A stretch of 42,406 nt of DNA from an uncultured Gammaproteobacteria bacterium (GTDB lineage: Bacteria > Cyanobacteriota > Vampirovibrionia > Gastranaerophilales > CAZEDP01), in contig CAZEDP010000001.1 of assembly GCA_964511035.1 (NCBI GenBank), positions 1-42,406 on the forward strand, given 5' to 3'. Shown piece by piece: positions 1,928 to 36,231 of the stretch (the stretch's first letter is position 1; the number at the start of each line of letters is the position of its first letter). Under the pieces are notes generated by a model that saw nothing but the letters and a program-made list of their open reading frames with translations, did not search any database and was not told where the DNA came from. The translations under genes were made by a program, and so were the position numbers.

Positions 1928-3310
1928 ATGAGTTACGGTCAATCAGCAAGCAGTTATTTGTCAAAATATATGTCATCGAGGTTATTTGGTTCAAGCAGCA
2001 CAGTAAATCAATCAAACACAGCAATCGGAGGAACTAACGTAAATCAAAACAACGTTGCTTTATTAACCAATGCCTTCTCAATTAACAGCCCTACCAATGT
2101 CAATCAGTCAAACATCTCTTTGGGAGGAGGAAATGTTAATCAGAATAACATAGCAGTGGTTAACGGTGGTGTCAGTATAGGAAGCCCAACTAACATTGGA
2201 CAATCTAATATTGCTATTGGAGCCGGCAATACAAATCAAAACAACATTGCATTGGTAAACAACGGCTTTTCAATCGGAAGTCCAACAAATATCGGACAAT
2301 CAAATATTTCTTTGGGAGGAGTGAATACCAATCAAAACAACATTGCTCTGGTAAACAACGGCTTTTCTTTATGCAGTCCGACAGATATTAATCAGAACAA
2401 CACGGCAATAGGCGGATGCAATACCAATCAAAATAACATTGCAATAGTAAATACCTGCACACCTTGTATTCCTTGTCCGCCTCCGCCGCCATGCAAACCT
2501 CCTGTTGCGCCTTGCGAATGGGGTTCTGTAACAGGTGACCCGCACTTTAGAGGCGGTGACGGAGAATCATACAATATTTATGCAGACGGTGGAACCGTCT
2601 TCAGTATAGTAAAAGACAAAAACTTCGACTACAATGCAAAATTCAACTACTGGGGCAACAACAGCGTAAGCGAATCCTCCGTAAGAGTTAAGAACGCAAT
2701 GGGCAATAAAACCAGCATTGTATATTACAAAGCTAACGGAACTGCTACGCTGGTAAATATCAACAACGGAGTAAAAACCGAGACAACTATTCAGCAGGGA
2801 CAAACTTACAACCTTGCTGACGGAGGAACTGTCAAATTCGGTTCCATAAAAGTCAATCCTAGTTCTTCAACAACTGAAACCAGGCTTATTGTAACATCAA
2901 GTGAAGGTTACACCCTATCTCAAAGAGCATATGGCAGCCATATTAACAGCACCTTCGAAACGAGTTCTAAAGGTACGGAATCTGACGGCGTAGCAACCAG
3001 CGGTCTGTTAGGAGATACCTTCGATCCGGATTCGGCAAAGAGAATTCCTACTGACAACAAAGGAACAGGTGTATTAAATAAAGCTCTCTCCGCATATGCT
3101 TTGGGAACAGACATAACTGCCATAGCAATGCAGGGTGTTAACACTACTGCTCAAACCGGATATGGTATGGATACAACCGGTATAAACGGTTTGATACAGA
3201 ATATGGGCTCATACGGAACAAACACAGGAAGCAGCTTCGGTTCATTCTTTAATACAGGATCCGGGCTTCAGAATTATCTTACATCCCTGTATTCCGGATA
3301 TGCCGCATAG
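1928..3310 (+). CDS. Asn/Gln-rich curlin-like repeat protein fused through a Pro/Cys linker to one Cys-free VWD-like (GDPH) module plus a C-terminal tail
   Basis: Strong RBS aaggaggaaaggaaATG. No hydrophobic signal peptide (MSYGQSASSYLSKYMSSRLFGSSS). Five 28-32-aa N/Q repeats are followed by the linker TPCIPCPPPPPCKPPVAPC. Then comes GDPHFRGGDGESYNIY...SIVKDK...GLLGDTFD, homologous to the modules of the upstream gene. Confidence 0.85.
   Translation: MSYGQSASSYLSKYMSSRLFGSSSTVNQSNTAIGGTNVNQNNVALLTNAFSINSPTNVNQSNISLGGGNVNQNNIAVVNGGVSIGSPTNIGQSNIAIGAGNTNQNNIALVNNGFSIGSPTNIGQSNISLGGVNTNQNNIALVNNGFSLCSPTDINQNNTAIGGCNTNQNNIAIVNTCTPCIPCPPPPPCKPPVAPCEWGSVTGDPHFRGGDGESYNIYADGGTVFSIVKDKNFDYNAKFNYWGNNSVSESSVRVKNAMGNKTSIVYYKANGTATLVNINNGVKTETTIQQGQTYNLADGGTVKFGSIKVNPSSSTTETRLIVTSSEGYTLSQRAYGSHINSTFETSSKGTESDGVATSGLLGDTFDPDSAKRIPTDNKGTGVLNKALSAYALGTDITAIAMQGVNTTAQTGYGMDTTGINGLIQNMGSYGTNTGSSFGSFFNTGSGLQNYLTSLYSGYAA
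1997..2458 (+). repeat. Five consecutive about 96-nt coding repeats (32-aa units, consensus SPTNIGQSNIAIGGGNTNQNNIALVNNGFSIG)
   Basis: Units start at nt 1997, 2087, 2183, 2279 and 2375. Units 3 and 4 are nearly identical at protein level. Confidence 0.85.
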
Positions 3311-3540: not shown

Positions 3541-3771
3541 ATGATTAACAACGTTATGAATATTTTAAACAGAACTTTATACCCTCAAAAATACACACCG
3601 CATACACCTTTAAAAACAAATTATTCAAGCAATCCGTTTGCGGAACCTTTTCAAGGTTCTAACAATTATAATAACTATGCAAAAAATAACCCTGTACAGG
3701 GGGGCATATTTGCAGGGTATTATAATGGCAAATCCAATATAGTAGGCTCAAAACTTTTCATTGAAGCCTAA
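3541..3771 (+). CDS. Hypothetical small N/Y/G-rich protein (76 aa)
   Basis: ORF preceded by gaggaaaatatATG. Composition is biased (GSNNYNNYAKNNPVQGGIFAGYYNGKSN). Its stop codon overlaps the stop of the convergent kinase gene (cTAa at 3768-3771). No recognisable domain. Confidence 0.3.
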   Translation: MINNVMNILNRTLYPQKYTPHTPLKTNYSSNPFAEPFQGSNNYNNYAKNNPVQGGIFAGYYNGKSNIVGSKLFIEA

Positions 3772-4394
3772 CTTTCAATAGGCAAATGCATTAAGAAGGT
3801 GCTTCCAGCTCCTGTTTTGGTTTCTGCGGTTATGAAACCTTTATGCGCTTCTGTTATAGTCTTTGCTATCAGCAAGTTTCTGCCAAATTCAGAACAGTCA
3901 TGTTTTAATATCAATGCTTCATCAAACAAAAAATTCAGAGCTTCGGCATTAATCCCTTTGCCAAAGTCTCTGAACGATAATACAACGTGTTTTTCATTCT
4001 TATAGCTTTTGATGATAATTTCTCCATATTTTGGACTGTGATGAATTGCGTTGGTAATTATATTAGCCACAGCTTGCTGCATAAACCAGAAATTGAATTG
4101 TACATTAATATCTTCGACTCCGGATAAATTTATCTTTATATGCTTATCTTGACTGTTTTGAAGACATATTTGAACGGATAATTCAACCAATTTCTTGATT
4201 GAATTATTTTCAAACGATATTATCCCTCTACCACAGCTCTCTTTAATTTTGTTTAAATACAAAACAGTTCCCAGAAGTTTGTCATTGTTAATATCAGTGT
4301 GATTTGGAATCATCTCAATAAATTCGCATCTCCAAACATAATCCTGCACAAAAAAATAAATAAACATAAAGTTATGTTTATTTATAAAAGACAA
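3768..4394 (-). CDS. Short sensor-less histidine kinase (H-box region plus HATPase_c only), possibly a remnant
   Basis: N-box QAVANIITNAIHHSP, G1 RDFGKGI, F-box LFDE and a C-terminal GAGSTFLMHLP. Candidate H-box NHTDINNDKLLGTVLYL resembles the CitA/DcuS-type H.....N.L..I.G motif. There is no TM or sensor domain. The longest ORF starts at a TTG, so the start is uncertain. The upstream region is non-coding and AT-rich. Confidence 0.6.
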   Translation of the reverse strand: MSFINKHNFMFIYFFVQDYVWRCEFIEMIPNHTDINNDKLLGTVLYLNKIKESCGRGIISFENNSIKKLVELSVQICLQNSQDKHIKINLSGVEDINVQFNFWFMQQAVANIITNAIHHSPKYGEIIIKSYKNEKHVVLSFRDFGKGINAEALNFLFDEALILKHDCSEFGRNLLIAKTITEAHKGFITAETKTGAGSTFLMHLPIES

Positions 4395-7269: not shown

Positions 7270-8121
7270 TTAAACTATGTTTTCAATATATCCGGCACCA
7301 AAACCGTTTGTTGCATTGTCATAGTAATTTGCAATGAATACGGAATCCTCATACAGGTTATTTGCTTCAATAAACAACGAATCATAAAATCCGTTTTGAT
7401 CAACGTCCTGAGATTCTGTAGTATATCCGCCTGTCCAGCCGGTCAAATTCAAAGTATCACAACCGCTTGTATCGTAAATAGTATCGTGACCGGAACCGTC
7501 AAAGTAACCTGTATAGGTATCATCGCCGTCTCTGCCTTCAAGCCAATCGTTCCCTGCATTTCCAATTAAAGTATTATTACCGCTGTTTCCGCCGATATTG
7601 TTATTTAGGTCGTTTCCTGTTCCGTTCAGGTTGGCAGAACCTGTCAATGTTAAATCTTCAACATTTGAGGGAAGTGTATAACTTATTGAAGATAATACAT
7701 GATCATGTCCTTCTTCGGGATTTTCATGAACACCGTCAAGAGCAATATCAACATAATAAGTATCATCGCCGGCTTCGCCGTACATCATGTCCTTATTTGA
7801 TCCGCCGTCAAGAATATCATTCCCTTCTCCGCCATACAAAGTGTCGTCGCCTGCATCTCCAAGAAGCCAATCATTGCCGTTTTCACCCCAAATAATATCA
7901 TTTGAGTTACCGCCTCTCAGATAGTCATTACCGTCACCGCCCCAAATAAAATCATTGCCGTCACCACCGTTTGCACGGTCATTACCGGCTCCGCAGTAAA
8001 TCAAATCAGCTTTATCGCCGCCGACAATATAATCGTCACCGTCAAACCCTTTAATCTTATTGGTCTCACCCATAATTCCAAAGAGTGTGTCATCACCATT
8101 CGTTCCTAAAATAAGTGCCAT
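7270..8121 (-). CDS. RTX (hemolysin-type) calcium-binding repeat protein, probable T1SS substrate
   Basis: Consecutive GG.G.D nonapeptides (GGDGNDFIWGGDGNDYLRGGNSNDIIWGENGNDWLLGDAGDDTLYGGEGNDILDGG). No signal peptide. Strong RBS aaggaggaaagtATG. Confidence 0.9.
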   Translation of the reverse strand: MALILGTNGDDTLFGIMGETNKIKGFDGDDYIVGGDKADLIYCGAGNDRANGGDGNDFIWGGDGNDYLRGGNSNDIIWGENGNDWLLGDAGDDTLYGGEGNDILDGGSNKDMMYGEAGDDTYYVDIALDGVHENPEEGHDHVLSSISYTLPSNVEDLTLTGSANLNGTGNDLNNNIGGNSGNNTLIGNAGNDWLEGRDGDDTYTGYFDGSGHDTIYDTSGCDTLNLTGWTGGYTTESQDVDQNGFYDSLFIEANNLYEDSVFIANYYDNATNGFGAGYIENIV

Positions 8122-8287
8122 ACTTTCCTCCTTTTGCCTTTCTTAATTTAAATAACCAACAAACAACTATTATTTATATAGTTATATACATGTTTGTTGT
8201 ATTTTATACTGAAAAAATCAATTTCTATATCACTAATAGAGTAAAATATTGTTATTAAAACTTGATTTATTTGTTGTATATTAATTC

Positions 8288-8323
8288 AAAATACTATTCT
8301 AATAAATTATCAGAATAGTATTT
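8288..8323 (-). terminator. AT-rich hairpin downstream of the second RTX gene
   Basis: aaatactattct-(11-nt loop)-agaatagtattt, a 12-bp stem. On the minus strand it is followed by a T-rich stretch. Confidence 0.5.
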
Positions 8324-8353
8324 TTATATTTTAAATTATTTAAACAATATTTA

Positions 8354-9214
8354 CTAAACGGGATAAATTATGCATTCAATAAAACCCGCACCGTTTCCGG
8401 CTGCAATCGTGTCATCATAATAATTTTGAATGAAGACTGTATCCAACGACGTAAGGTTTTCAATAAACAAAGCATCAAGAAATCCGTTACCGTTACTGTC
8501 AACACCCGTTGTATCAACGCAATTAGACCATCCGCACAAGTCAAGTATGTCCAGGCAGCCGCCTGCATCCTTTATTGTGTCATGACCGGAACCGTCAAAA
8601 TAACCCTTATAAATATCATTGCCTAAACCTCCAATCAGCGTGTCATCACCGCAGTTACCGACCAGTTGGTTATTTCCGGTATTGCCTTTTATAATATTAT
8701 CCAGTTCATTTCCCGTTCCTCTTGTATCTTCTGTTCCGATAAGATTCAAATTCTCGACATGAGATGGGAGAACAAAACTGACTGTCGAATTTACTTCATC
8801 GATACCTTGATCGGCTAGCTCGATTACTTTATCTGTTTTGGTTTCGACATAATAGATATCATTTCCTGTCCCTCCTTCCATTCTATCGGCTCCGTCAAAA
8901 CCGTCCAAAATATCATTTCCGGACTCGCCTCGCAATATATCGTTGCCTGCACCGCCGTTTAGCACGTCATTGCCGCAACCTCCCCATAATATATCGTTAC
9001 CGTCTCCTCCGTAAAGTTTGTCATCGCCGTCTTCACCATAAATGAAGTCATTTCCGCAATCGCCGTAAATATAATCGTTACCTGTACCTCCATATAATAA
9101 ATCACCTGTACCTGATCCTTCAATGATGTCATTTCCACCAAGTCCATAAATTCTGTCACCAAATAGCGTACCAACAAGATGATCGTCGCCGTTTGTTCCA
9201 TAGATAATAACCAT
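8354..9214 (-). CDS. RTX calcium-binding repeat protein, paralogue of 7270-8121
   Basis: GTGNDYIYGDCGNDFIYGEDGDDKLYGGDGNDILWGGCGNDVLNGGAGNDILRGESGNDILDG. It shares the C-terminal blocks GYFDGSGHDTI.D and F(I)(A/Q)NYYD...GAG(Y/F)IE with the neighbour. RBS gaggaggagaacaATG. Confidence 0.9.
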   Translation of the reverse strand: MVIIYGTNGDDHLVGTLFGDRIYGLGGNDIIEGSGTGDLLYGGTGNDYIYGDCGNDFIYGEDGDDKLYGGDGNDILWGGCGNDVLNGGAGNDILRGESGNDILDGFDGADRMEGGTGNDIYYVETKTDKVIELADQGIDEVNSTVSFVLPSHVENLNLIGTEDTRGTGNELDNIIKGNTGNNQLVGNCGDDTLIGGLGNDIYKGYFDGSGHDTIKDAGGCLDILDLCGWSNCVDTTGVDSNGNGFLDALFIENLTSLDTVFIQNYYDDTIAAGNGAGFIECIIYPV

Positions 9215-9598: not shown

Positions 9599-11086
9599 AT
9601 GAAAAAGCATCGGCAAAAATGTTTGTTATATAAGGCTGTAATTATTTTCACAGTATTTTTAGGAACTAATTGCACAGTTTTTTCTCAGGTACAAACCGAT
9701 GAGGCAAAGCCAAAATCGGATGAAAACATCCAACAAACCACAGATTTTATTCCCGCAGATTCAAATCAGTTTGCAGAAAATCAACTTGAAGCGCCTATAT
9801 TGTATTTAAAAAACCCAAATCCTGAAGAAGCTGTTGTGTTAAATCTTGAAACTATTATAGAGTTCCTGGAAGAACAAAATTTGGATATTAACCTTGCTCA
9901 ATCAAAAGTAAAACAGTCTAAAGACTATTACTGGGCTTCATATGCTCCGTTTTTACCTTCGTTTTCCGCACAGTTTTACGGGGAAAGAGTTCGCGGAAAG
10001 GACGTAATAATTTTAAACGAACCTGTTTCAACAGACAGAAATACTCTAAAGCCCGGATTGACCGGCGACTACAATTTCTCCCCGTCATTTAAACATGTCT
10101 TCAGAATAAAACTCATGAAAAGTCAGGTAAACAAATATAAAGACACTTATGACAGGACTTTTCAAACTGCACTTTACGATGCTGCCAAGCTCTACATAAA
10201 CTGGTACAAGAATTATATGGATATTGAGCAGGCAAAACAATCTTTGAAAGAAGCAGAAGAGCAACTCAAAGTTAATGAACTGAGGATGCAAAACGGTTTC
10301 GGGACTAGACTCGATGTTATGCAGTCTAAAGCCCTGCTTGCAGACAGAAAGAATGTTGTTTTAAATACAGAAAATCAAAAATCAGGTTCTGAAATCGATT
10401 TGATTACTTTATTAAACCTTCCGGTTATTTGCAAAATTCAGCCCGAAAAACTTTCCAATGAAGAAATCACATTTGATGAAAGTACTAAAGATATAAAAGA
10501 TCTTTTGAAAATTACCGAAACAAACAGAGCAGATGTAAAGGCGTTAAATGAAGAAATTAAAATGGCTAAATCTCAGCTGCTTTATTCGGTTGCAGATCTG
10601 GTACCGGATGTCCAGCTCAGATATACAGGTAAAAAAGTTGGTTCGTCAACCGGAGATTTAGACACCTATAAACAGGGTTCTTTATATATAAATCTTGATG
10701 TTCTCAAATATATGGGACTGGAGAAGTTTCAAAGCATTAAAGCTAACCGGGAAAAGATTACCGAAGCTGTGTTAAGCAAACAAAAAGCACTCAATGAAGC
10801 ATACAGCAAACTCTACAAAGTGCATAATGATTGCAGATATTACAAAGAGCAGCTTCAGGTTAATAAAGATAAACTGGCAGCAGCGGAAGAAGGATACAGG
10901 ATTGCTGATGCAAGGTACAAGGTGGGATTTGGCATAAACCTTGAAGTTATGCAATCCCTTACAGATTTGTCAAAAGCACGGCTGGAATATCAAAAATCCC
11001 TTTCTGACAGCAATACCGCTCAGATTGAACTTTTGTACCAACTGGGGATTTTAACTCCCGACAGAATCTTAGCCTCAGTAAAATAA
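9599..11086 (+). CDS. TolC-like outer-membrane efflux protein (T1SS outer-membrane factor)
   Basis: Signal peptide-like N-terminus (KAVIIFTVFLGTNCTVFSQ). Two-fold repeated coiled-coil-rich architecture with OEP-type blocks (LNLETIIEFLEEQNLDINLAQSKV... and NELRMQNGFGTRLDVMQSKALL; RYKVGFGINLEVMQSLTDL). Confidence 0.85.
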   Translation: MKKHRQKCLLYKAVIIFTVFLGTNCTVFSQVQTDEAKPKSDENIQQTTDFIPADSNQFAENQLEAPILYLKNPNPEEAVVLNLETIIEFLEEQNLDINLAQSKVKQSKDYYWASYAPFLPSFSAQFYGERVRGKDVIILNEPVSTDRNTLKPGLTGDYNFSPSFKHVFRIKLMKSQVNKYKDTYDRTFQTALYDAAKLYINWYKNYMDIEQAKQSLKEAEEQLKVNELRMQNGFGTRLDVMQSKALLADRKNVVLNTENQKSGSEIDLITLLNLPVICKIQPEKLSNEEITFDESTKDIKDLLKITETNRADVKALNEEIKMAKSQLLYSVADLVPDVQLRYTGKKVGSSTGDLDTYKQGSLYINLDVLKYMGLEKFQSIKANREKITEAVLSKQKALNEAYSKLYKVHNDCRYYKEQLQVNKDKLAAAEEGYRIADARYKVGFGINLEVMQSLTDLSKARLEYQKSLSDSNTAQIELLYQLGILTPDRILASVK

Positions 11087-11101: not shown

Positions 11102-12382
11102 TCACTGCCTTGTTGAGGGTTCTTTAAACGCTTTTTCTACATTTTCTGAAATCGGCTCTGTAATGAAGCTAAGGATGTTTTTATCTCGTGTGATGAAATC
11201 AGCCATTACAGTCATACCGGATTTAATATAATGCCCATTACCTCGTCGGTTAGTAAGAAAAATTGTATCAGGTTTAACCCTGACCATATAATAGGGTCTG
11301 TTATTTTCATCGATCATAGTTGACGGAGAAACGGATAACACCTTTCCAGTCATTTTCCCGAATTGCTGATAGGGCAGGGCATCCATCCTTAATATAACTT
11401 TCTGGTCAGGTTTAATATAACTTAAATCCTTGTTACCGACTTTGATTTCAGCAACCAATCCGGCTCCTTCGGGTACTATCGTCATCAAAGTATCGCCCAT
11501 AGCAACTGTTTCACCCGGATTTCTAATAATTAAGTCATTAACATATCCGTTCGAAGGTGCAATAATACGCTGGCGTTTGGAGCTTAATCTGGCTTGTTGA
11601 ACCTGTGTAGCTATTTGAGCTATATCTCTTTGATGCCCCGAAAGCTTTTCAAGAATGTCCCTCTGATAACTCCCTGAAATTTTTCCAACAGCACGTTGAG
11701 ATTGGAGCAGTTCCATTTCTTTAGCTTTCAGTTCTTCAGAAGAAGAAGCTACAGTACCTCGCAAATCAATTACCCTTTGTTCATAATTTCTCAAATCTTT
11801 CTCTGATAATCCGCCTTGTTCGTATAAATTGTTATATGAACTCAATTGTTCTTCGCCTTTTTGAAGAAGATTTTGATTCTTTAATAATTCTTCTTTTACT
11901 TGCCCATATTCGTGTTTTAACCTTGTCATATTCATTTTTGCAGCTTCAATATCATTTTGATATTCATTTTGAGCTGCTCTTAGCCATGCTGAAGACACAC
12001 TTCCATCTGAGTATGCCTTTTTATTGGCATATGCCATTCTCAAGGCATTAGACTCCTGCATGAGTAAATTTAACTGTTGAGAGACACCTCTCTGTTCAAT
12101 AAGCGTCATCTCCGGATCAAGCTCAACCAGCACTTGTCCTTTTTTAACTTCCTGATCGGGCTTTACATACACTCTATAAACAATGCCGTTATAAGGCGAA
12201 GTAACTTTGTTCAGTCTTCCGTCAGGCATAATCTGTCCAACACCTGGGACAGCTTCATCCATTCTTCCGAACCATCCCCAGATTAATAAACCTGTAACAG
12301 TGATAAACAAGGCTAAAAGAAAAGAAAGTGAAATATAAAAACTTCTTGTTTTTTGAAATTGAGTTTGTCTTTCGTCAATCAT
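11102..12382 (-). CDS. HlyD-family membrane fusion protein (T1SS periplasmic adaptor)
   Basis: A single N-terminal TM (FYISLSFLLALFITVTGLLIWGWFG). Lipoyl-like hairpin (VTSPYNGIVYRVYVKPDQEVKKGQVLVELD ... IIAPSNGYVNDLIIRNPGETVAMGDTLMTIVP) flanking a long coiled coil. Confidence 0.9.
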   Translation of the reverse strand: MIDERQTQFQKTRSFYISLSFLLALFITVTGLLIWGWFGRMDEAVPGVGQIMPDGRLNKVTSPYNGIVYRVYVKPDQEVKKGQVLVELDPEMTLIEQRGVSQQLNLLMQESNALRMAYANKKAYSDGSVSSAWLRAAQNEYQNDIEAAKMNMTRLKHEYGQVKEELLKNQNLLQKGEEQLSSYNNLYEQGGLSEKDLRNYEQRVIDLRGTVASSSEELKAKEMELLQSQRAVGKISGSYQRDILEKLSGHQRDIAQIATQVQQARLSSKRQRIIAPSNGYVNDLIIRNPGETVAMGDTLMTIVPEGAGLVAEIKVGNKDLSYIKPDQKVILRMDALPYQQFGKMTGKVLSVSPSTMIDENNRPYYMVRVKPDTIFLTNRRGNGHYIKSGMTVMADFITRDKNILSFITEPISENVEKAFKEPSTRQ

Positions 12383-12425: not shown

Positions 12426-14936
12426 TTACTTATAAACCCCCTGCTGAATGCTGTAAAGATGATAATAATAACCCTTTGATGAAATCAAGTCCGAGTATTT
12501 ACCTTCTTCTGCAACAAATCCTTCATTCAATACAACAATTCTATCTGACCATTGATGTGCAGGCAAAAAGTCCGTCACAAATATGCAGGTTTTATGCTTG
12601 TACCTTTCCAATAAATACTTAAATATTGACATTTGTTCGTTAAAATCAAGAGTATTTAAAGTTTCATCAATAATTAAAATATCGGGATTTGTTATCAGAA
12701 CTCTGGCTAAGGCTATTTTTGCAGCTTGACCTCCTGAAATATTAAGTCCCCCCGAAATCAAATTAGTATTAAGTCCGTTTGGAAGTTTTGAAATAAAGCT
12801 GTCAAGTTTTGCAAGAGAAACAGCATTTAAAAGATTTTCCATTGATGAATCGGGAGTACTGAGCATAATATTTTCTTTAATCGTCCCCGAGAAAATAGCC
12901 GGACGCTGAATAACTGTTCCAACGGAATATCTGAGTAATTCATGATCAATTGTTTGTATATTATACCCGTCTATGGAAATTTCCCCCGATACAGGCTTAT
13001 ATAATCCCTGAAGAAGCCTTATCAATGTGCTTTTACCGGAACCGCTTTTGCCTGTTAAAACAATCTTCTCACCTTGTTTGATACTGAGGTTTACGTTATT
13101 CAATATAAAATTAGAATCCTGAGAATAACGGAAATAAACATCCGAAAATTCTATATCTCCCTTTATGTTTCTCAGAAATATGCCTCTTCCTTCGTCTTCT
13201 GAAGGTAATGCAATTGTGTAAAGGTTCTTCAATTCCTGTCTTAGAGGCATAGTTTCCTGAAAAAGCTGGAAAGAGGTCAGCATTCTCTGAAAAGATCCGA
13301 TGAAATTCCTCCCCATCATACTTATAGCAAGATATACACCGTATGTAGTATGCCCCATAAGAACTTCGTAAGCACCGAAATATAATGTTGCAAGATAACC
13401 GAGGCTGCCCACCGTTCCCAGTAAATTGCCCCCTGAAATATTGCTGAATCTCGACATAAAATCTTTTTCAACGTATTCGTTAACATTTTTTCCGATGGAA
13501 TTCATCATAGTCCATTCAGCACTGACTGATTTAACGGTTTCTATATTAGATACCGCTTCCTGAAGCTTAATCTGGCTGTTTCGCTGATTCTTGCCCGACT
13601 GCATCAATCTGGCTTTTTGCATAGGCATAATAAAGAAGACTATCAATGCAATGGGAATAATAGGAGAAAGTGAAATAAAGGCAAGTTTTACATTTAACAT
13701 GAACAAAATTACAACCATAATAAGCGACAAACCAAGATCCAATGATGAAAGCAGTGTTGTGTATGCATACGCATAATTGATTTTTGAAATTTCCGCAAAT
13801 TTTTCAATGTGGTTTTTAATATCACCAGATACTGTATCCAGTGGCAGCGCAAAAATTCTCTTAAGAAAACTTTTGAAACTCAATTTATCTATGTTTTCGA
13901 GAAAATTCGCCAATACAAACGACCTGACAGATTTGACCGCTATATCAAATGTCAAAATCATAATCATACCGACAGACATAACATCCAGAGCCGAAATATT
14001 TTGTCGTCCGAATACTCGGTCAAATATGACGATATAAAATATCGGCATACCAAGAGCAAACAGCTGAATTAAGAAGGATGCTATTACCATTTGTAGCGTT
14101 ATATCAGCATTTCGTTTGTAAAGATTCATATACCAAAGGGTACTAAAGGGTTCTTCTTGTTCAACAACATCGCTTCTAGGTGCTCTTTCAATTTTTAAAA
14201 GATTAAGTTTTTCATTTGGTGAAACATCTTCAGGCAAAAATCTTTCGTTTGTTAACCCCTCAATCAGCGCATTTCCTTTTCTGCCGGTAATCCATATTAA
14301 CCCGCCGTCTTTGTTTTCAAGAACAAACGGAAAATTTGTATTTAACAGCTGTTTCCATTCAACTTTTCTGGAAACAGCTCTGAAATCTAAATCTTTAAGA
14401 AGACTTCTCAAATCTTCAAGACTTTCTATCGGACAGTTGTGATTTTTGTTCGGAAATTTGTAGTACTCAAAAAGCGCATCCAGAATATCAGATGGGTTAA
14501 ATGAACCGGAAAGTCCGGTTGATGTTGATTCAAAACCTTCATTATTTAGAAATGGGACTTTTTCTCTTTGATTATTTGTATTTCTGAGTTCATCAAGTTT
14601 ATTTAAATAAAAATCGTATGCTCTTTTTAAGTCCTCACGTTTCAAAACTTCATCCAACAGAATTTCAAAGATAACTGTTGCTTCTGATGCAAGATATTTA
14701 TAATCATCAACCGTAAAATCCCATAATTCGCCTTCGTTTATAAAAGAAACCGTGTAGTCTCCTTCGTCAGAAGGTTTAAGGATTCTAATCTTACCGGACT
14801 TAATAAAACAAATTCTGTCAGAAGCTCCTTCAAAGCCGCTAATTCTTTTACCCGGCGAAAATTTGAATTCCGTACTGTCCGAAAATAAATAGTCCGGACT
14901 GCCAACAGAAACATTTCTTAAACCATTATCCACCAT
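12426..14936 (-). CDS. T1SS ABC exporter: N-terminal cyclic-nucleotide-binding-like domain, degenerate C39-like domain, 6-TM domain and ATPase
   Basis: Walker A GKSGSGKST, Q-loop VIQRP, signature ISGGQAAKIALAR, Walker B ILIIDE. The N-terminus has a CAP-like pattern (FKFSPGKRISGFEGASDRICFIKSGKIRIL...FINEGELWDF...ASEATVIFEI). The following roughly 110 aa align to a C39 peptidase fold but lack the catalytic Cys and His, as in the HlyB C39-like domain. Confidence 0.9.
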   Translation of the reverse strand: MVDNGLRNVSVGSPDYLFSDSTEFKFSPGKRISGFEGASDRICFIKSGKIRILKPSDEGDYTVSFINEGELWDFTVDDYKYLASEATVIFEILLDEVLKREDLKRAYDFYLNKLDELRNTNNQREKVPFLNNEGFESTSTGLSGSFNPSDILDALFEYYKFPNKNHNCPIESLEDLRSLLKDLDFRAVSRKVEWKQLLNTNFPFVLENKDGGLIWITGRKGNALIEGLTNERFLPEDVSPNEKLNLLKIERAPRSDVVEQEEPFSTLWYMNLYKRNADITLQMVIASFLIQLFALGMPIFYIVIFDRVFGRQNISALDVMSVGMIMILTFDIAVKSVRSFVLANFLENIDKLSFKSFLKRIFALPLDTVSGDIKNHIEKFAEISKINYAYAYTTLLSSLDLGLSLIMVVILFMLNVKLAFISLSPIIPIALIVFFIMPMQKARLMQSGKNQRNSQIKLQEAVSNIETVKSVSAEWTMMNSIGKNVNEYVEKDFMSRFSNISGGNLLGTVGSLGYLATLYFGAYEVLMGHTTYGVYLAISMMGRNFIGSFQRMLTSFQLFQETMPLRQELKNLYTIALPSEDEGRGIFLRNIKGDIEFSDVYFRYSQDSNFILNNVNLSIKQGEKIVLTGKSGSGKSTLIRLLQGLYKPVSGEISIDGYNIQTIDHELLRYSVGTVIQRPAIFSGTIKENIMLSTPDSSMENLLNAVSLAKLDSFISKLPNGLNTNLISGGLNISGGQAAKIALARVLITNPDILIIDETLNTLDFNEQMSIFKYLLERYKHKTCIFVTDFLPAHQWSDRIVVLNEGFVAEEGKYSDLISSKGYYYHLYSIQQGVYK

Positions 14937-29430: not shown

Positions 29431-30291
29431 ATGATATATGATGAGTTGATAGCTAATAAAAATACTTTAAAATTTAGTGTTTTAATTCCAATTTATTTTA
29501 AAGAAAAACCTGAATATTTTGAACAAGCTATAAATAGTATTTTAAATCAAAGCCTAAAACCTGATGAAATTTTAATATGTAAAGATGGGCCTTTAACAAA
29601 TGAACTTAACAAGTTAATTACAAGTTTTGTTAATAAATACCCAAGATTGTTTAAAATAATCGAACTTGATAAGAATAGAGGTGCAGGAGCCGCAAGGAAG
29701 CTTTCAGTAGAGAAAACATCTCATGATATTATTGCAATTATGGATTCAGATGATATTGCAAAGCCTGAAAGATTTGAAAAGCAAATAAAATTTTTACAAG
29801 AAAATCCTGATATTGATGCCGTTGGTTCATATGTTTCAGAATTTGAACATTGTCCCCAAAAACCATATTCAATAAGAAAAGTTCCGCTGACTCATAATGA
29901 TATAGTCAAATACTCGAAATGGCGATGCCCTATGAACCAACAGACAGTAATAACAAAAAAAGAAAATATATTAAAGGCAGGAAATTATTCCGATGAATAT
30001 ATGCTTATGGAAGATTATCATTTGTGGGTAAGAATGATACTATCAGGTGCCAAGTTTGCGAATATTCCCGAATGCCTTGTCGATATGAGAGCGGGACCTA
30101 CCATGATTAAAAGAAGGGGGCTTAGAGTTTTTAAGTATGAAATGAAATTTTTTCAGGAATTATATTTATTAAATTTTATTTCCAAAATTGAACTTTGCAG
30201 GAATTTGTTCTGTAAATTTTGGCTAAGAATATTGCCTCCAAATTTTAGAATTCTTGCCTATGATTTGTTTTTACGTAAAAGGATAAAATAA
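29431..30291 (+). CDS. Family 2 glycosyltransferase
   Basis: FSVLIPIYFKEKPEYFEQAINSILNQS...ILICKDG...MDSDDIA...EDYHLW is a GT-A fold with the D.D motif. Confidence 0.85.
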   Translation: MIYDELIANKNTLKFSVLIPIYFKEKPEYFEQAINSILNQSLKPDEILICKDGPLTNELNKLITSFVNKYPRLFKIIELDKNRGAGAARKLSVEKTSHDIIAIMDSDDIAKPERFEKQIKFLQENPDIDAVGSYVSEFEHCPQKPYSIRKVPLTHNDIVKYSKWRCPMNQQTVITKKENILKAGNYSDEYMLMEDYHLWVRMILSGAKFANIPECLVDMRAGPTMIKRRGLRVFKYEMKFFQELYLLNFISKIELCRNLFCKFWLRILPPNFRILAYDLFLRKRIK

Positions 30292-30321
30292 TTATAAAAA
30301 AGTAGATTATTTGTTTAAAAT

Positions 30322-31200
30322 CTATCTTTTTATCCAACTATCAGGAATAACATCGATTGTGTTTCGTTTCAATTTAAATGAATTTTTAAACCAAATTTCA
30401 GGGGCAATAATTATTTTGTTAGGATTTTCATTAAGCCAAGCACCCCACCAAGCATATGTCGAATTTGATATAATAGCATGCTTACAATGCTTTATGAGAC
30501 AAATACCTGCAGCGTATCCGTTTTTCATATCATAACTGTTGCATATAGTAAGCGGGTATTTTATTTTAATATTGTCAAAACACCAATCACTATTATCTGT
30601 AAACAAGTAAAAATGGGGATTTTCAATTTTCTCTGCAATTTCGTTTATACTTCTTAAATAATAGTCTCTTTCAAGAGCCCAACCTAACTTTACATAATCA
30701 GCTCCTCTTCTTACTGAAACTGCAACTGAATTTTCCGACATAATATTTTGTAGAATTTGGTTGTTTTTTGCTTCCATTTCATATTTTAAACTGAAATCAT
30801 ACAATAATTCTTTTCTGTAATTTAGAAAATATTTCTCGTTTACAAAATAACCATCATAATAAACATTATCTCTATCAATATTTTGTAGGTCAGGCTGATA
30901 TTGATTTCTGACTTTTTCATATGTTCTGTTTGTAGGGAATAATTTAATACCGCTAATTTTATAAATATTTGTATATAATTCAGCTAATTTGTTCTCGCTA
31001 AGGCATTTTTTTATTTCTTCGTTAGTAGCAAATTTCAAATCTGCATTAAATGAACCTAATGCGTATTTGACCCAGTGTCTTTCCTCCTTCTTTCTTGCAA
31101 AATAGGATAAATCAAATAAGACCTGATCTCCTAATGCTTTTGAAAAAGCATATTGAAACATTTGATTACCCAGTCCGCCCATTAATTTTATTATTATCAA
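30322..31200 (-). CDS. Family 11 glycosyltransferase (alpha-1,2-fucosyltransferase-like)
   Basis: MIIIKLMGGLGNQMFQYAF (GT11 motif I), VAVSVRRGADYV (HVRRGDY-like), and ISNSTYAWWGAWLN. Confidence 0.85.
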   Translation of the reverse strand: MIIIKLMGGLGNQMFQYAFSKALGDQVLFDLSYFARKKEERHWVKYALGSFNADLKFATNEEIKKCLSENKLAELYTNIYKISGIKLFPTNRTYEKVRNQYQPDLQNIDRDNVYYDGYFVNEKYFLNYRKELLYDFSLKYEMEAKNNQILQNIMSENSVAVSVRRGADYVKLGWALERDYYLRSINEIAEKIENPHFYLFTDNSDWCFDNIKIKYPLTICNSYDMKNGYAAGICLIKHCKHAIISNSTYAWWGAWLNENPNKIIIAPEIWFKNSFKLKRNTIDVIPDSWIKR

Positions 31201-31259
31201 TTTTTCACCACAAACAATTCTTATTTTTATTGTTTTATAACCTATAATAAATTTTTTTT

Positions 31260-32768
31260 ATGTTAACATCTACAAATAAGGTTAAATCTATGAAAACTGT
31301 TAATTTATTAAAAAGTGTTTTAATTCTAACATTAATTTTAATATTTTTTTATGACTTTTCTTTTATATTTGGACCAACAATTTTAAGCTGTTACTTTTTG
31401 ACATTAATTCCCTTGTATTTGCTTTTTATATTGAAAGCTCCTGAAAAATTTATTAACAATATTGCTTTTCTCTATAAAAAGACCCCGGCAAAATATTTTG
31501 TTTGGACTATAGCAGGTTTTTTAATTACTTCCCTGATTGCAATAATTTCAGGGAAATACTCGGTTTCTAACGCAATTTATCGTATTCCGCGTGAATTATT
31601 TTTTATAATACCCTTAACTTATTTTTTTCCGATATATTTCATTCCAAGATATTTATCTTATAAATTGTTAATTAAATTTTCTGTCATTGTTACGTATGTA
31701 ATACTTTTTCTAGGTATAGTTGACCTTATTGGTATCTTTTTTGATATCGAACATATAAGAACGGTTCTTGGTTCTTTAGGTAATTTCAAGCTTCTTGGAG
31801 CTATAAGAAGTAATATCAAAGACCCAATGCATGTATTAACGAGTTTTGAGGTAATTTCAGGATTTCCGAGAATTCAAAGTGTTTTCCACGAACCCGGTGC
31901 TTACTCAAAATTTATTCTGATAATGCTTCCTATAATCTACAAATTCTCAACAACCTCTTACAAAATATTCAGTAATCCATATTTAAACTTACTTGCTAAA
32001 AGAACATTTATATTATTTGCTTGGGCTGGACTTTTGTTTGCGCAGTCTCCAATTTACTTTATTTTTGCGGTAATGTTCACTGCTATGTATTTTTATAAAT
32101 CATTAATTTCTTCAATCAAAAAAAATATTCACACATATTCAATGTTATTTCTTTTGTTTGGTGTTATTACGAGTTTAATATTAATTAATATAAATTTCTC
32201 CCAAACCTTTTTAATGAGAGTTTGGCGAGTTTATGAAAGTCTGGGAAGTTTCGACAAATTTATCTTTTATGAACCGTCGCTTGCTACCCGAATCATTTCA
32301 TTTATTAATTGCATTGATGTATTTCTTAAGAATCCAATTGTTGGTGTTGGCTTTAGTAATCAAGTTTATGTTATGTATGAACAACTTCTTGCCTCACCCG
32401 TTCCGCTTACAGATGAATTAATGCGAGGTATGTACGCAGACTCTGATATTACAAGAGTATCGTTCTCCACATTTTATTATTTGCTTGCGGGCTCCGGAAT
32501 AGTTGGTACTTCAATATATTATTATTTTGTATATAAAAATATTAAAATTTTAAACAAAATTAAAACATATTACATCGGAATAGAAAAAGATTTTTTGTAT
32601 GCACTTGAAAATAGTTTATACATAATAATTTTCCTTGGATTTTATAGTTTTAATTTTTTAAATGGATTATCTTGGTTTTTCTTTGGCTTGATCACTTCAT
32701 TTGTTTTAGGGTATCTGAAAAATAAAAATGATATAAAAATTGAGGATAGAGATGTTTCAAAACAATAA
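31260..32768 (+). CDS. Polytopic membrane protein, O-antigen/EPS polymerase (Wzy)-like
   Basis: Ten or more hydrophobic segments with a larger loop region, in a Wzx/GT context. There is no strong sequence motif, which is typical for Wzy. Alternative start at ATG 31290 (aagg upstream). Confidence 0.7.
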   Translation: MLTSTNKVKSMKTVNLLKSVLILTLILIFFYDFSFIFGPTILSCYFLTLIPLYLLFILKAPEKFINNIAFLYKKTPAKYFVWTIAGFLITSLIAIISGKYSVSNAIYRIPRELFFIIPLTYFFPIYFIPRYLSYKLLIKFSVIVTYVILFLGIVDLIGIFFDIEHIRTVLGSLGNFKLLGAIRSNIKDPMHVLTSFEVISGFPRIQSVFHEPGAYSKFILIMLPIIYKFSTTSYKIFSNPYLNLLAKRTFILFAWAGLLFAQSPIYFIFAVMFTAMYFYKSLISSIKKNIHTYSMLFLLFGVITSLILININFSQTFLMRVWRVYESLGSFDKFIFYEPSLATRIISFINCIDVFLKNPIVGVGFSNQVYVMYEQLLASPVPLTDELMRGMYADSDITRVSFSTFYYLLAGSGIVGTSIYYYFVYKNIKILNKIKTYYIGIEKDFLYALENSLYIIIFLGFYSFNFLNGLSWFFFGLITSFVLGYLKNKNDIKIEDRDVSKQ

Positions 32769-33642
32769 TGGCAGAATAGTTATTTTTGCCCATTGGGACA
32801 AGGATAATTTAATTGATGATTATGTAATATATTATCTTAATGCATTAAAAAATATTGCAAATATCATTATCTTTTCATCTGACTGCGATATTAAAGATAC
32901 TGAGCTTAAAAAATTAGAAAATATTACACCTTATATTATTTCAAAATGTCACGGTGAATATGATTTTGGTTCATATAAAAGAGGCTATGTTTATGCTCAA
33001 AGGCATAATTTATTAAAAAATGCTGAAGAATTGCTAATATGCAATGATAGTTGCATCGGACCTTTTCATCCGCTTGAAGATATTTTTGAAGAAATGAAAA
33101 ATAATAGTTGTGATTTTTGGGGATTAAATTATAACAAATATATTACCTCACATCTTCAAAGCTTTTTTCTCGTATTTAAAAAAAATGTATTTAATTCAAA
33201 GCAATTTGAAGAGTTTCTGTTAAACGTAAGGATCGAAAGAAATAAAAATATTGTTGTAAAAAAATATGAATTGAATTTTACTGAATATTTGCTGCAAGCA
33301 GGCTTTAATTATTCTTATTGCTTTGATAAGCCAATACCTCATAGACTATATTCAACAATATTCAGCGAAATGGGAAATACAAAATATCCATTCATAAAAA
33401 AAAGTATGTTGAATAATTATTTAAATAAATCAGTCTCATTTTTTGTTAATAAAATGAGGAAAAATATTTATTGTAACTATCCCTTTGAAATTATTGAAAA
33501 ATACTATGAAAGAATTAATAGAGGAAATATTCAGTCAAAATTTGTAAACTTTATTAAACTTTGGGTTTCTTACTATATTATATTTCCAAGAACAAGAGAT
33601 AGGTTATACTTTATAAATAAATGGTATTACTTTAATAAATAA
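32752..33642 (+). CDS. Rhamnan synthesis protein F (RgpF)-like glycosyltransferase
   Basis: IVIFAHWDKDNLIDDYVIYYLNAL...GEYDFGSYK...ICNDSCIGPFHPLEDIFEEM....CDFWGL........HLQSFFLVFKK matches the RgpF family pattern. ATG at 32752 is preceded by gagga. Confidence 0.8.
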   Translation: MFQNNNGRIVIFAHWDKDNLIDDYVIYYLNALKNIANIIIFSSDCDIKDTELKKLENITPYIISKCHGEYDFGSYKRGYVYAQRHNLLKNAEELLICNDSCIGPFHPLEDIFEEMKNNSCDFWGLNYNKYITSHLQSFFLVFKKNVFNSKQFEEFLLNVRIERNKNIVVKKYELNFTEYLLQAGFNYSYCFDKPIPHRLYSTIFSEMGNTKYPFIKKSMLNNYLNKSVSFFVNKMRKNIYCNYPFEIIEKYYERINRGNIQSKFVNFIKLWVSYYIIFPRTRDRLYFINKWYYFNK

Positions 33643-33724
33643 TTGGATACTATGTCTTAAATTGGATACTGTAAAAATTTATGCTATATTTTGAAAATCA
33701 GAGTATGTATGGTTTCTAAGTTAT

Positions 33725-34927
33725 ATGAAAAAAGTTAGATTTGTAATCGGTGGTTTATTACGATTTTTAATTGGAAATTTATTGTCTTTATTTATTAAAA
33801 GAGATAAAAGTTATTGGGTGTTTAACTGTTCTTCAATTGTTACGTTACCACAAATGTTTACGCACAATACAAAATATTTGTTTCTTTTTCTGTCTACTAA
33901 TAAACAATATGGTATTACGCCGGTTTGGATTTCAAAAAATAAACAAATCATAAGCAGGTTAAAAGAATGCGGTTACAAAGCATATTATAAGTATAGTTTT
34001 CAAAATTTGTATTACTGTCTTAAATCTAAATATTATTTTGTTGATAGTGCTGCAGATGATATTTCAAAATATTTATCAGTTGGTGCTGTAATAATAAATT
34101 TTTGGCACGGAGTATCTTTAAAAAAAATTGGTCTTGATGCTGATACAAAATGTATTTCTAGAAACCTATCTGGTTTTCAGAAATCTTTTTATAACGCATT
34201 TAAAATAAAAGAAAATTACTTTGTTTCAAATAGTGATTATGATTCAAAGATTTTCAAGTCAGCTTACAATGTTGATAACAGTTCAATTCTAAAATTAGGT
34301 TCACCGCGTTTAGATATCCTTTTTAACAATATAAAAGATTCTGATCTTTTTATGGAAGAAAATGTTGAAAATATAATCAAACTAAAGCAAGAAAGCAGAA
34401 AATTACTGATTTATGTTCCAACATTTAGAGATACGGGTAAAGATATTTCAGGATGGTTACAATCAAATCATTTAAAAGAGGTATTAGCCAAAAATAATAT
34501 TACATTAGTTTGCAAACTACATATGGCTGACAATAACAAGTTAACTACGGACAATTGCAAAGAATTTTATAAAATGGCAAATAATGCAGACATTTATGCT
34601 GTTTTAAAATATACAGATGCTTTAATTACAGATTATTCGTCAGTATATTTCGACTATTTACTACTTGATAAACCGATTATATTTTATCCGTTTGACTTAA
34701 ATGAATATATTTCACAAGACAGAGAATTATATGTAAATTATAACGACTATACACCCGGAATCAAAGCTTATAATGAAAAAGACTTAATTGATGCAATTCA
34801 ACGAACTATCAACGGAGAGGATAACTATATGCAAGCTCGTTCTGATTTAAGAAATGAACTGTTTGATCATCAGGACGGCAAAAATTGCCAAAGGATAGTA
34901 GAATTTGTTAAAAATTTAGACAAATGA
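33725..34927 (+). CDS. CDP-glycerol glycerophosphotransferase family (TagB/TagF-like) transferase
   Basis: [14 protein letters not shown], and [30 protein letters not shown] are signature blocks of the Glyphos_transf family. Confidence 0.85.
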
Positions 34928-36231
34928 ATTTTATAATGTTTTCTTTATCAACAATAAAAACTTTATCAAACGACAAAAAAAGATTTTTTAAAAATTTTGC
35001 CTCTTTGTCTATTATGCAGATAGCAGGCTATATATTGCCTCTTTTAACTTTACCCTATCTTGCAAGAGTTTTGGATGCAGAGAAATTTGGTCTGGTATTT
35101 TTTGCTCAGGCATTTATTCAATATTTTATGATATTGACTGATTTCGGGTTTAACCTTTCAGCGACAAAAGAAATTTCAGTTAATAGAGAAAATCCTGACA
35201 AAGTTGCAGAAATATTCAATTCAGTAATGCTAATCAGATTTGTTTTATTATTAGTGAGCTTATTGATATTGGTTATTGTTGTATTTGGCTTTAGCAAATT
35301 CCGAAACGATTGGGCAGTATATTTTTTAACATTCGGAATGGCTGTAGGAAATGTATTGTTCCCAATATGGTTTTTTCAGGGAATGGAGCGAATGAAATTC
35401 GTTACTATATTAAATATACTTTCAAGAGTTATTTTCACCGTTTTAATCTTTGTATTTATAAAAAAATCTTCGGATTTTATATATGTTCCTTTACTGAATT
35501 CTATCGGCTTTTTAGCTTCAGGCATTTTATCTCTTTGGATTGTTTATAAGTATTTTGATGTCAAATTTTTCGTGCCTGATTTGAAAACAATTATTGTCCA
35601 CCTGAAAGACAGCACGCAGTTTTTTCTCTCAAGGGTTTCCGTGTCTTTATACACTTCAAGCAATGCTTTTGTTTTAGGTTTATTTACAAGTAATCAGGCG
35701 GTCGGGTATTATGTAGCGGCAGAAAAATTATATCAGGCATTACAGTACATATATTTCCCTATAAACAGCTCGCTCTATCCTTATATGTCAAAAGAAAAAA
35801 ATATACGATTCTTCAAAAAGCTTTTTGGGGGCGCATTCATATTAAACATTGTTCTATCATTGTTAATATTTATTTTCGCAAAAGAAATAATTCATATTTT
35901 TTACGGTGCAGATTTGGTCAAAAGCACAGGTGTACTGCAAATATTCTCAATGGCTGCACTTTTATTAATTCCTTCTATCTTCCTCGGGTACCCTTTTTTA
36001 GCAGCACTTGGTCAATCCAAATACGCCAATAACAGCGTTATAATAGGTTCTGTTATTCATATATTGGGGTTAGGAACGCTTATCTTATTCTCAGCTCTAA
36101 ATATATATACTGTTGCTATTATGGTAATATTTACAGAAGGAACAGTTTTGGCAATAAGAATATACGGTATAAAAAGACACAAGTTGTGGAACATTTCAAA
36201 TAAATTAGAAGAAAGTAAACCGGTATCATAA
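34924..36231 (+). CDS. wzx: Wzx-type polysaccharide flippase (MOP superfamily)
   Basis: About 12-14 TM segments. N-terminal [42 protein letters not shown] is typical of Wzx/RfbX. ATGA overlap with the upstream gene. Confidence 0.8.

Follow-up and report, generated by a model that had tools for sequence, protein, structure and literature searches.

The question raised by this locus is what a bacterial protein would do with a nearly uncharged, asparagine- and glutamine-rich repeat array joined to a module of the VWD fold, and by which route such a protein would leave the cell. The stretch of DNA analysed (the window) is 42,406 nucleotides long and represents positions 1 to 42,406 of the forward strand of contig CAZEDP010000001.1, GenBank assembly GCA_964511035.1. 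The gene in question, gene 2, stands near its left end, downstream of a paralogue, gene 1. To our knowledge, nearly all known instances of the VWD fold with a GDPH self-cleavage motif are in animal mucins, VWF and RGM. The reading preferred here, to which a probability of roughly 0.45 is given, is that gene 2 encodes a protein that would be exported independently of Sec and would cleave itself between D204 and P205 (D204/P205), so that a rod of repeats is split from the VWD body. The components are all of known kinds, namely a repeat stalk, the VWD fold, GD/PH autocleavage and substrates of type I and type III secretion systems (T1SS and T3SS); the array is an orphan repeat type and the combination is undescribed. 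A first-pass annotation of this DNA had not recognised the pairing of array and VWD module as described, and this was borne out by phmmer, run exhaustively over 1.84 billion representative proteins, in which relatives of the array were found only in its own orthologue cluster. No paper combining 'VWD domain', 'bacterial' and 'T3SS' was found in the literature.

Architecture of gene 2

The features of gene 2 are given below with strand and the evidence for each. Ratios of nonsynonymous to synonymous substitution rates (dN/dS), here and throughout, refer to the syntenic gene 2 orthologue in L001, a metagenome-assembled genome (MAG; GCA_964643065.1). Confidence of AlphaFold models is given as the predicted local distance difference test (pLDDT).

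1736-1765, +, intrinsic terminator after gene 1, with a 13-bp stem and then a T run
1916-1920, +, Shine-Dalgarno sequence GGAGG, 7 nt ahead of the gene 2 ATG at 1928, read from the sequence
1928-3310, +, gene 2, from the list of open reading frames (ORFs), encoding a 460-aa protein with repeat array and VWD module
1928-1993, +, Ser-rich N-terminus MSYGQSASSYLSKYMSSRLFGS, residues 1-22, no hydrophobic signal-peptide core, pLDDT below 50
1994-2458, +, five tandem Asn/Gln-rich units, residues 23-177 (Tandem Repeats Finder, half-site scan, AlphaFold strands, dN/dS)
1994-2086, +, unit R1, residues 23-53, 31 aa
2087-2182, +, unit R2, residues 54-85, 32 aa
2183-2278, +, unit R3, residues 86-117, 32 aa
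2279-2374, +, unit R4, residues 118-149, 32 aa
2375-2458, +, unit R5, residues 150-177, 28 aa
2459-2521, +, Cys/Pro-rich linker TPCIPCPPPPPCKPPVAPCEW, residues 178-198, 4 Cys in 21 residues, dN/dS 0.04
2522-3127, +, VWD-fold module, residues 199-400, 0 Cys (AlphaFold, Foldseek, motif conservation)
2534-2545, +, GDPH, residues 203-206, predicted scissile bond D204/P205 between 2539 and 2540
3002-3025, +, GLLGDTFD, end motif of the VWD module
3128-3307, +, Gly/Ser/Asn-rich uncharged tail, residues 401-460, ending LTSLYSGYAA, dN/dS 0.08

Translation of 1928-3310 gave exactly the residues on which the first-pass annotation had based its call of five consecutive repeat units. The five units stand, while the start of the array is moved from 1997 (residue 24) to 1994 (residue 23). 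At the DNA level a 96-nt period was detected over 2177-2451 with 75-83% matches. Each unit had also been said to contain a pair of half-sites, and the pattern [NDT][VITS][NGT]Q[SN]N[ITV][AS][ILV] was indeed found ten times in the array, at residues 25, 37, 57, 69, 89, 101, 121, 133, 153 and 165, whereas it was seen once at most when the residues of that segment were shuffled 20,000 times. The spacing of the half-sites alternates between 12 and 20 residues and the unit is therefore 12 + 12 + 8: two 12-residue half-sites of the form N-x-N-Q-(S/N)-N-x-A-x-G-G-G, followed by an 8-residue G-F-S-I-G-S-P-T segment. Asparagine (26%), glycine (12%) and isoleucine (11%) are prominent, approximately 32% of residues are aliphatic or aromatic, and the 155 residues include one acidic and no basic side chain. 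Nine of the 32 columns of the unit are invariant across eight units.

The low-complexity appearance of the array is the one point in favour of regarding it as a spurious ORF, or as functionless repeats generated by slippage. Gene 2 has its own start, because the strong terminator at 1736-1765 closes the upstream gene, and a strong Shine-Dalgarno sequence precedes its ATG. The opposite strand carries no competing ORF of at least 60 aa in the ORF list. The protein is found in four cluster members from independent assemblies, and the orthologue P0001/P0044 is 98% identical to it. Along gene 2, dN/dS lies between 0.02 and 0.10, with 0.02 in the C-terminal domain. For the repeat array itself dS is 0.59, dN 0.057 and dN/dS 0.10, and the L001 orthologue keeps the frame, the motif and the five-unit register. 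The array is under purifying selection and is thus a real, constrained coding sequence; on the strength of the orthologue comparison, an origin as meaningless repeats can be considered refuted.

One unit departs from this pattern at the DNA level. Gene conversion is seen at R3 (2183-2278), where the orthologous copies share 72% DNA identity compared with 89-96% for the other units. The R3 of the window resembles its own R4 (79%), and that of L001 resembles R5 (81%).

Relatives of the array

Searches of genes 1 and 2 against Pfam (E≤10) and NCBIfam (E≤0.01) returned no family. Sequence searches of the Protein Data Bank (PDB) with the array and with a profile of the 32-aa unit gave zero matches at E≤10. 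A word-index homologue search with the 154-aa array was empty and missed even P0001 with its 99% identity, a false negative for a low-complexity query; the exhaustive search was therefore used instead. A local phmmer search does find P0001 with the array, at 7e-76. Two additional matches from the exhaustive search, P0053 (an ankyrin repeat protein) and P0054 (a eukaryote-like repeat protein), were rejected as spurious, since their 23-26% identity arises through repeat composition only.

The 12-residue element is also present at the N-terminus of gene 1 orthologues, with four copies in P0002 and two in P0003, reading ITQSNTALGSG, LISQLNVAIGSG and so on. Many distant members of the family carry strand-turn motifs of the form x-A-[FYI]-A-[YI]-[AG] within their first ~40 residues. 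The occurrence of the 12-mer in P0002 and P0003, together with the similar motifs in relatives, indicates that gene 2 is an expansion of an N-terminal family element.

A bacterial VWD module

The module downstream of the array had been described in the first-pass annotation as VWD-like, and structural comparison upheld this. Residues ~195-395 were modelled by AlphaFold with confidence (pLDDT 80-98), and all 35 Foldseek matches in the PDB at E≤1e-3 were mucin/VWF D assemblies, the best being MUC5AC (9gvj; E 5e-7, probability 1.0). A PDB sequence search with a profile of the C-terminal module yielded chance matches only (MacA and alphavirus E2, E≥0.05). The Pfam VWD family (PF00094) was matched by 19 of 40 family members, with a best E of 5.4e-7, and not by the window protein at E≤10; the VWD-matching homologues are linked to the window protein by profile search at E values of 1e-10 to 1e-78. 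A profile built from seven modules (A1) retrieved 37 proteins.

Canonical VWD domains begin with GDPHY.TFDG..Y and end with GLCGN.NG. The bacterial modules read GDPHF-x-GGDG-x-x-Y at the start and GLLGDTFD at the end, and these motifs correspond to the canonical start and end. Across 40 sequences the motif keeps G203 and H206 without exception, and D204 and P205 in at least 90%.

The likeness to mucin/VWF D assemblies thus extends to the fold, to the motifs GDPH[FY]..(F/G)DG..Y and GL(C/L)G..(F/N)D, and to the placing of GDPH on the first strands. There are differences as well. The module of gene 2 is cysteine-free and the protein falls below Pfam detection; no match to the C8 or TIL domains of Pfam was obtained in the window protein or in the 40 family members; and the protein is bacterial and without a signal peptide. 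It is a stripped-down bacterial VWD. Cleaved eukaryotic VWD fragments stay together through disulfides, whereas cleaved fragments of the gene 2 protein could not remain joined in this way.

The GDPH motif and predicted self-cleavage

Self-cleavage at GD/PH is established in eukaryotic VWD domains (PMC10880436). It is also induced by Ca2+ in the MIIA/DUF1521 domain of the T3SS-secreted proteins NopE1, NopE2 and VIC_001052, where the domain occurs once or twice per protein (PMC6506597). The near-invariance of GDPH in the present family suggests that array and VWD module become separated by self-cleavage, rather than the module being anchored or displayed by a fibre as the first-pass annotation had proposed, and scission at D204/P205 in the gene 2 protein is judged, from the motif, to be somewhat likelier than its absence.

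NopE1 and NopE2 of Bradyrhizobium and VIC_001052 of Vibrio coralliilyticus resemble the present family in carrying GDPH in bacterial proteins that are secreted, here probably, without Sec. They resemble it also in having one or two modules per protein, as do gene 2 (one) and gene 1 (two), and in their location within T3SS gene clusters, which is matched by distant relatives of gene 2. In MIIA, by contrast, GDPH lies in the middle of an acidic domain that is disordered when Ca2+ is absent, whereas the gene 2 module is near-neutral (isoelectric point, pI, 6.2) and is modelled as a full VWD sandwich with GDPH at its start. The relationship was examined with five DUF1521 copies taken from the supplement of PMC6506597 as machine-read text, in which apparent reading errors were corrected by hand. 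Alignment of the family modules with these copies in hhalign gave 18% probability over 28 columns around GDPH only, and Pfam DUF1521 matched none of the 40 members at E≤1. Homology of the C-terminal module to DUF1521/MIIA was rejected, as the GDPH neighbourhood alone aligns; the two are functional analogues only.

Fold of the repeat array

In the first-pass annotation the units were likened to curlin repeats, and this part of it failed. The curlin repeat is 23±5 aa long and comprises two N-$-Psi-$-Psi-$-Q kernels (QX10Q) with X-G-X-X arcs between them (PMC10192328). In the array the period is 32, the Q-Q spacing is 12/20 and the N-$-Psi-$-Psi-$-Q kernel is absent. Curlin_rpt (PF07012) matched neither the full protein nor the isolated array at E≤10, nor any of the 40 family members at E≤1, and when a profile of the 32-aa unit was compared with CsgA R1-R5 in hhalign, the probability was 2% and only 'GGGN' aligned. 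Among the scanned ORFs of the 42-kb window there are no csg-like genes, csgEFG included, and no fapF-like genes. Profile, alignment, period and spacing, together with the lack of a Sec signal peptide, rule out CsgA/CsgB as relatives: on its sequence features, the array is not a curlin. What the two share is tandem Asn/Gln/Gly-rich strand-turn repeats, five units and a plausible polar-ladder beta-solenoid; curli have two strands per unit and a Sec leader, compared with three or four strands per array unit and no leader in the gene 2 protein.

The fold was modelled with AlphaFold at full length with a 40-sequence alignment and, in a second run, from the single sequence of the isolated array. In each of the two models strands fell at positions 8-12, 21-26 and 29-31 of each unit, and the second added a fourth short strand. 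Confidence was low (pLDDT 45-65, predicted template modelling score 0.51). The closest structural neighbour of the array model in Foldseek was the amyloid FapC (9u4u), which was not significant (E 0.03, probability 0.09, template modelling (TM) score 0.16); weak matches to the left-handed beta-helix enzymes LpxD, LpxA and GlmU had TM scores below 0.12. The earlier suggestion that the array may form a beta-solenoid or amyloid-type fibre fits the recurring strands; model confidence is low and no structural neighbour is significant. Given the periodicity, composition and constraint of the array, a beta-solenoid is plausible, at about even odds.

Low pLDDT, mostly below 65, is also what would be expected if the array had no stable fold and served either as an uncharged, flexible stalk, perhaps with glycans attached, or as a long N-terminal region for export or chaperone binding. 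Family N-terminal regions vary strongly between clades, the array is without homologues, and five N-x-S/T sequons (NQS twice, NIS twice and NNT once) occur in residues 1-200. The hydrophobic residues of the array are periodic, which together with a single charge in 155 residues argues against a classical disordered spacer; such near absence of charge is the reverse of what typical disordered linkers show. The invariant unit columns, the dN/dS of the array and the strict alternation of its aliphatic and aromatic residues likewise speak against such a stalk. A purely disordered spacer is disfavoured by position-specific conservation and the lack of charge, and an unfolded array appears unlikely overall. 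The sequons would be compatible with N-glycosylation, though no transferase to match was identified.

The same composition, uncharged and rich in Asn, Gln and Gly with alternating aliphatic residues, would suit a functional amyloid. Here the array, possibly freed by GD/PH cleavage, would build fibres outside the cell, polymerising head-to-tail or through cross-beta stacking, as a matrix component like curli or Fap but of an unrelated family. The strand-turn periodicity of the models, the non-significant first rank of FapC and the short AYAQAGN-type strand-turn repeats at the N-terminus of relatives all point in this direction. FapC of Pseudomonas is, like the array, an imperfect N/Q-rich repeat protein; it differs in that no sequence match was obtained at E≤10, in the missing leader of the gene 2 protein and in the lack of fap genes nearby. 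Curli and Fap subunits both need a Sec signal, which gene 2 does not provide. Against a fibre there is also the lack of curlin profile similarity, of a sequence match to any PDB amyloid and of csgEFG-like or fapF-like genes in the window, and an array fixed at five units between orthologues suits a monomeric rod equally well. A fibre-forming amyloid is consequently held to be a weaker possibility than a beta-solenoid-type fold, and an improbable one.

There is, finally, a loose likeness between S-N-x-A-I-G in the array and the N-S-V-A-I-G motif carried by YadA heads, which with the weak matches to LpxD, LpxA and GlmU might suggest a known beta-helical adhesin repeat (YadA/Hep_Hag head, hexapeptide left-handed beta-helix, RTX beta-roll or ice-binding N-x-V-x-G roll). 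The negative profile and PDB searches described above and the TM scores argue against this, as do the lack of an autotransporter anchor and of a signal peptide. A regular-expression search found no GG.G.D or GG-x-G-x-D nonapeptide in gene 1 or gene 2. Since the profile searches are empty, this explanation is largely refuted and is regarded as very improbable.

Predicted export of the gene 2 protein

No Sec signal peptide was found in the gene 2 protein, the most hydrophobic 10-aa window in its first 45 residues scoring 0.2 (Kyte-Doolittle), nor in any family member. Export independent of Sec is accordingly probable. A T1SS is encoded within the window:

7270-9214, -, two RTX (HemolysinCabind) proteins of 283 and 286 aa (NCBIfam RTX_toxin and serralysin-type repeats)
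9599-11086, +, TolC-like protein (TIGR01844)
11102-12382, -, HlyD (TIGR01843, 232.7 bits, above cut-off; Pfam HlyD)
12426-14936, -, HlyB-type ABC transporter of 835 aa (TIGR01846, E 2e-113; Pfam ABC_membrane and ABC_tran)

The two RTX proteins may be substrates of type I secretion. In the ABC transporter, the match to the HlyB profile starts only at approximately residue 170, leaving an N-terminal extension. The T1SS lies 6 kb from gene 2 with four unrelated genes between, an arrangement that is syntenic in L001, the RTX genes included; the distance and the intervening genes make this linkage suggestive only, and export of the gene 2 protein by the neighbouring HlyB/HlyD/TolC system is proposed tentatively, at somewhat less than even chance. 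Gene 2 resembles RTX T1SS substrates in this neighbourhood, in its want of an N-terminal signal peptide and in having a repeat domain that would fold after export. Its array lacks GG.G.D and has one acidic residue, and Ca2+-driven beta-roll folding is therefore inapplicable.

The tail of gene 2 (residues 401-460) is predicted to form three short helices, at 416-427, 436-443 and 447-455 (AlphaFold, low pLDDT), and relatives repeatedly show a pair of amphipathic helices at their C-terminus. From these models the tail is a candidate C-terminal export or assembly element.

Relatives of the VWD module occur in contexts of both secretion types. Two 755-aa relatives (L007 7146-9410 and L006 1159-3426) hold the VWD/GDPH module inside bona fide RTX proteins, between Pro-rich linkers, with GSGDD repeats on its N-terminal side and canonical RTX nonapeptides on its C-terminal side. 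The MAGs that encode these also encode a short non-RTX form (L004 and L005). Five independent loci encode distant relatives in or beside injectisome (T3SS) genes:

L016, sctJ, N, Q, R, S, T and U near a VWD/GDPH relative
L017, sctU near a VWD/GDPH relative
L018/L019, sctL, N, Q, R, S, T and U near a VWD/GDPH relative
L020, sctV, sctC and a Y4YQ-like gene near a VWD/GDPH relative
L021, Paracoccus sanguinis plasmid pPspOM122, NZ_CP051543.1 24070-25122, WP_168783995.1 ('hypothetical protein') between a gene for a YscE-type needle co-chaperone and sctU

The lack of signal peptides, together with these T3SS and RTX contexts, indicates that the family appears to travel by one-step, Sec-independent routes. 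At two of the loci the VWD/GDPH gene has, some kilobases upstream, a gene for a DUF4781 protein (L016 1542-3809 and L017 5811-9080); these proteins may be co-secreted partners of the VWD/GDPH proteins. Beside the close relatives of gene 2, none of the flanking genes of the window was seen, the RTX fusions of L006 and L007 excepted.

Proposed mechanism

In the preferred reading the gene 2 protein has four parts: the Ser-rich N-terminus, the ten-motif array, the Cys/Pro linker, and the cysteine-free VWD module with its helical tail. It would be exported unfolded, most likely through the HlyB/HlyD/TolC system 6 kb away, and would fold outside the cell. The ten 12-residue motifs, each a polar strand and a Gly turn, would then form five 32-residue coils of a rod that resembles a beta-solenoid and bears no charge, its Asn/Gln stacked and its core made of Ile, Leu, Val and Phe. 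Self-cleavage of the VWD GDPH at D204/P205 would part a fragment of ~20 kDa, rod and linker, from the VWD body and tail, paralleling GD/PH cleavage in eukaryotic VWD domains and in the T3SS effectors NopE1 and NopE2.

Several observations weigh against this reading. Cleavage is read from the motif alone, and the module has none of the disulfides that hold cleaved eukaryotic VWD fragments. The array model is of low confidence and its best structural match is not significant. As regards export, RTX nonapeptides are missing from genes 1 and 2, the tail of gene 2 resembles no known T1SS signal, and the linker and gene 1 have many cysteines, which is unusual in a substrate of either a T1SS or a T3SS. 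Proximity to a T1SS is confined to the gene 2 lineage, close relatives in L013 and L015 having no secretion genes nearby, and no T3SS genes were found in the 42-kb window.

Gene 1 and other features of the window

The remaining features of the window are as follows.

1-1707, +, gene 1, paralogue of gene 2, truncated where the window begins on the left; frame 1 is open from base 1 and matches P0002 (607 aa)
763-888, +, 27-nt tandem repeat encoding the (VCPPPVTPP)n linker of gene 1 (Tandem Repeats Finder, period 27, 4.7 copies, 90% matches)

Gene 1 encodes two VWD/GDPH modules with seven Cys each, joined by the Cys/Pro linker; its GDPH codons lie at 94-105 and 928-939 and its tail ends FVSLFTGATA. 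The start listed for the gene 1 ORF, at 88, corresponds to an internal Met. The ORF that directly follows gene 2 (3541-3771, +) is 76 aa long and Asn/Tyr-rich, is 82% identical to its counterpart in L001 and matches no Pfam family. At 3768-4394 (-) a TTG-start ORF encodes, of a histidine kinase, the HATPase_c part alone and has neither a HisKA nor a sensor domain. This ORF is 63% identical to its L001 orthologue, compared with 90-96% for neighbouring genes, and may be what remains of a kinase, either decaying or evolving fast. Further downstream, G+C content falls to 26-29% across 30000-36000, against 33-41% elsewhere, over a cluster of glycosyltransferase, RgpF, CDP-glycerol glycerophosphotransferase and flippase genes; the drop fits a horizontally acquired surface-glycan locus. 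Scans of the window for tRNAs and Rfam families found nothing.

The taxonomic labels of relatives are inconsistent. The syntenic MAG GCA_964643065.1 is labelled 'uncultured Gammaproteobacteria', and relatives of near-identical architecture are labelled Cyanobacteriota, Myxococcales or Pseudomonadota. The architectures in L003, L004 and L007 closely match those in L005 and L006 under the conflicting labels 'uncultured Gammaproteobacteria' and 'Cyanobacteriota bacterium', so that at least one label is probably wrong.

Implications

A more far-reaching proposal is that substrates of one-step secretion (T1SS and T3SS) would generally use the VWD/GDPH module as a self-cleaving 'release cassette', which here would liberate an Asn/Gln-ladder beta-solenoid that polymerises extracellularly. 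This is a long shot. If true, it would define a new class of Sec-independent functional amyloid, unrelated to curli and Fap, and would tie NopE-type GD/PH autocleavage mechanistically to the eukaryotic VWD fold.

Apart from that proposal, the array is an orphan repeat type that is nevertheless strongly constrained and nearly free of charge, which makes it a candidate for a new beta-solenoid or self-assembling repeat type. The module belongs to a conserved bacterial VWD/GDPH family that is without a Sec signal, is found inside injectisome clusters and is fused to RTX repeats. For the NopE effectors, Hoyer et al. 2019 (PMC6506597) state that a structure determined by experiment is lacking, and the bacterial family gives a structural frame with which their Ca2+-triggered GD/PH autocleavage can be compared.

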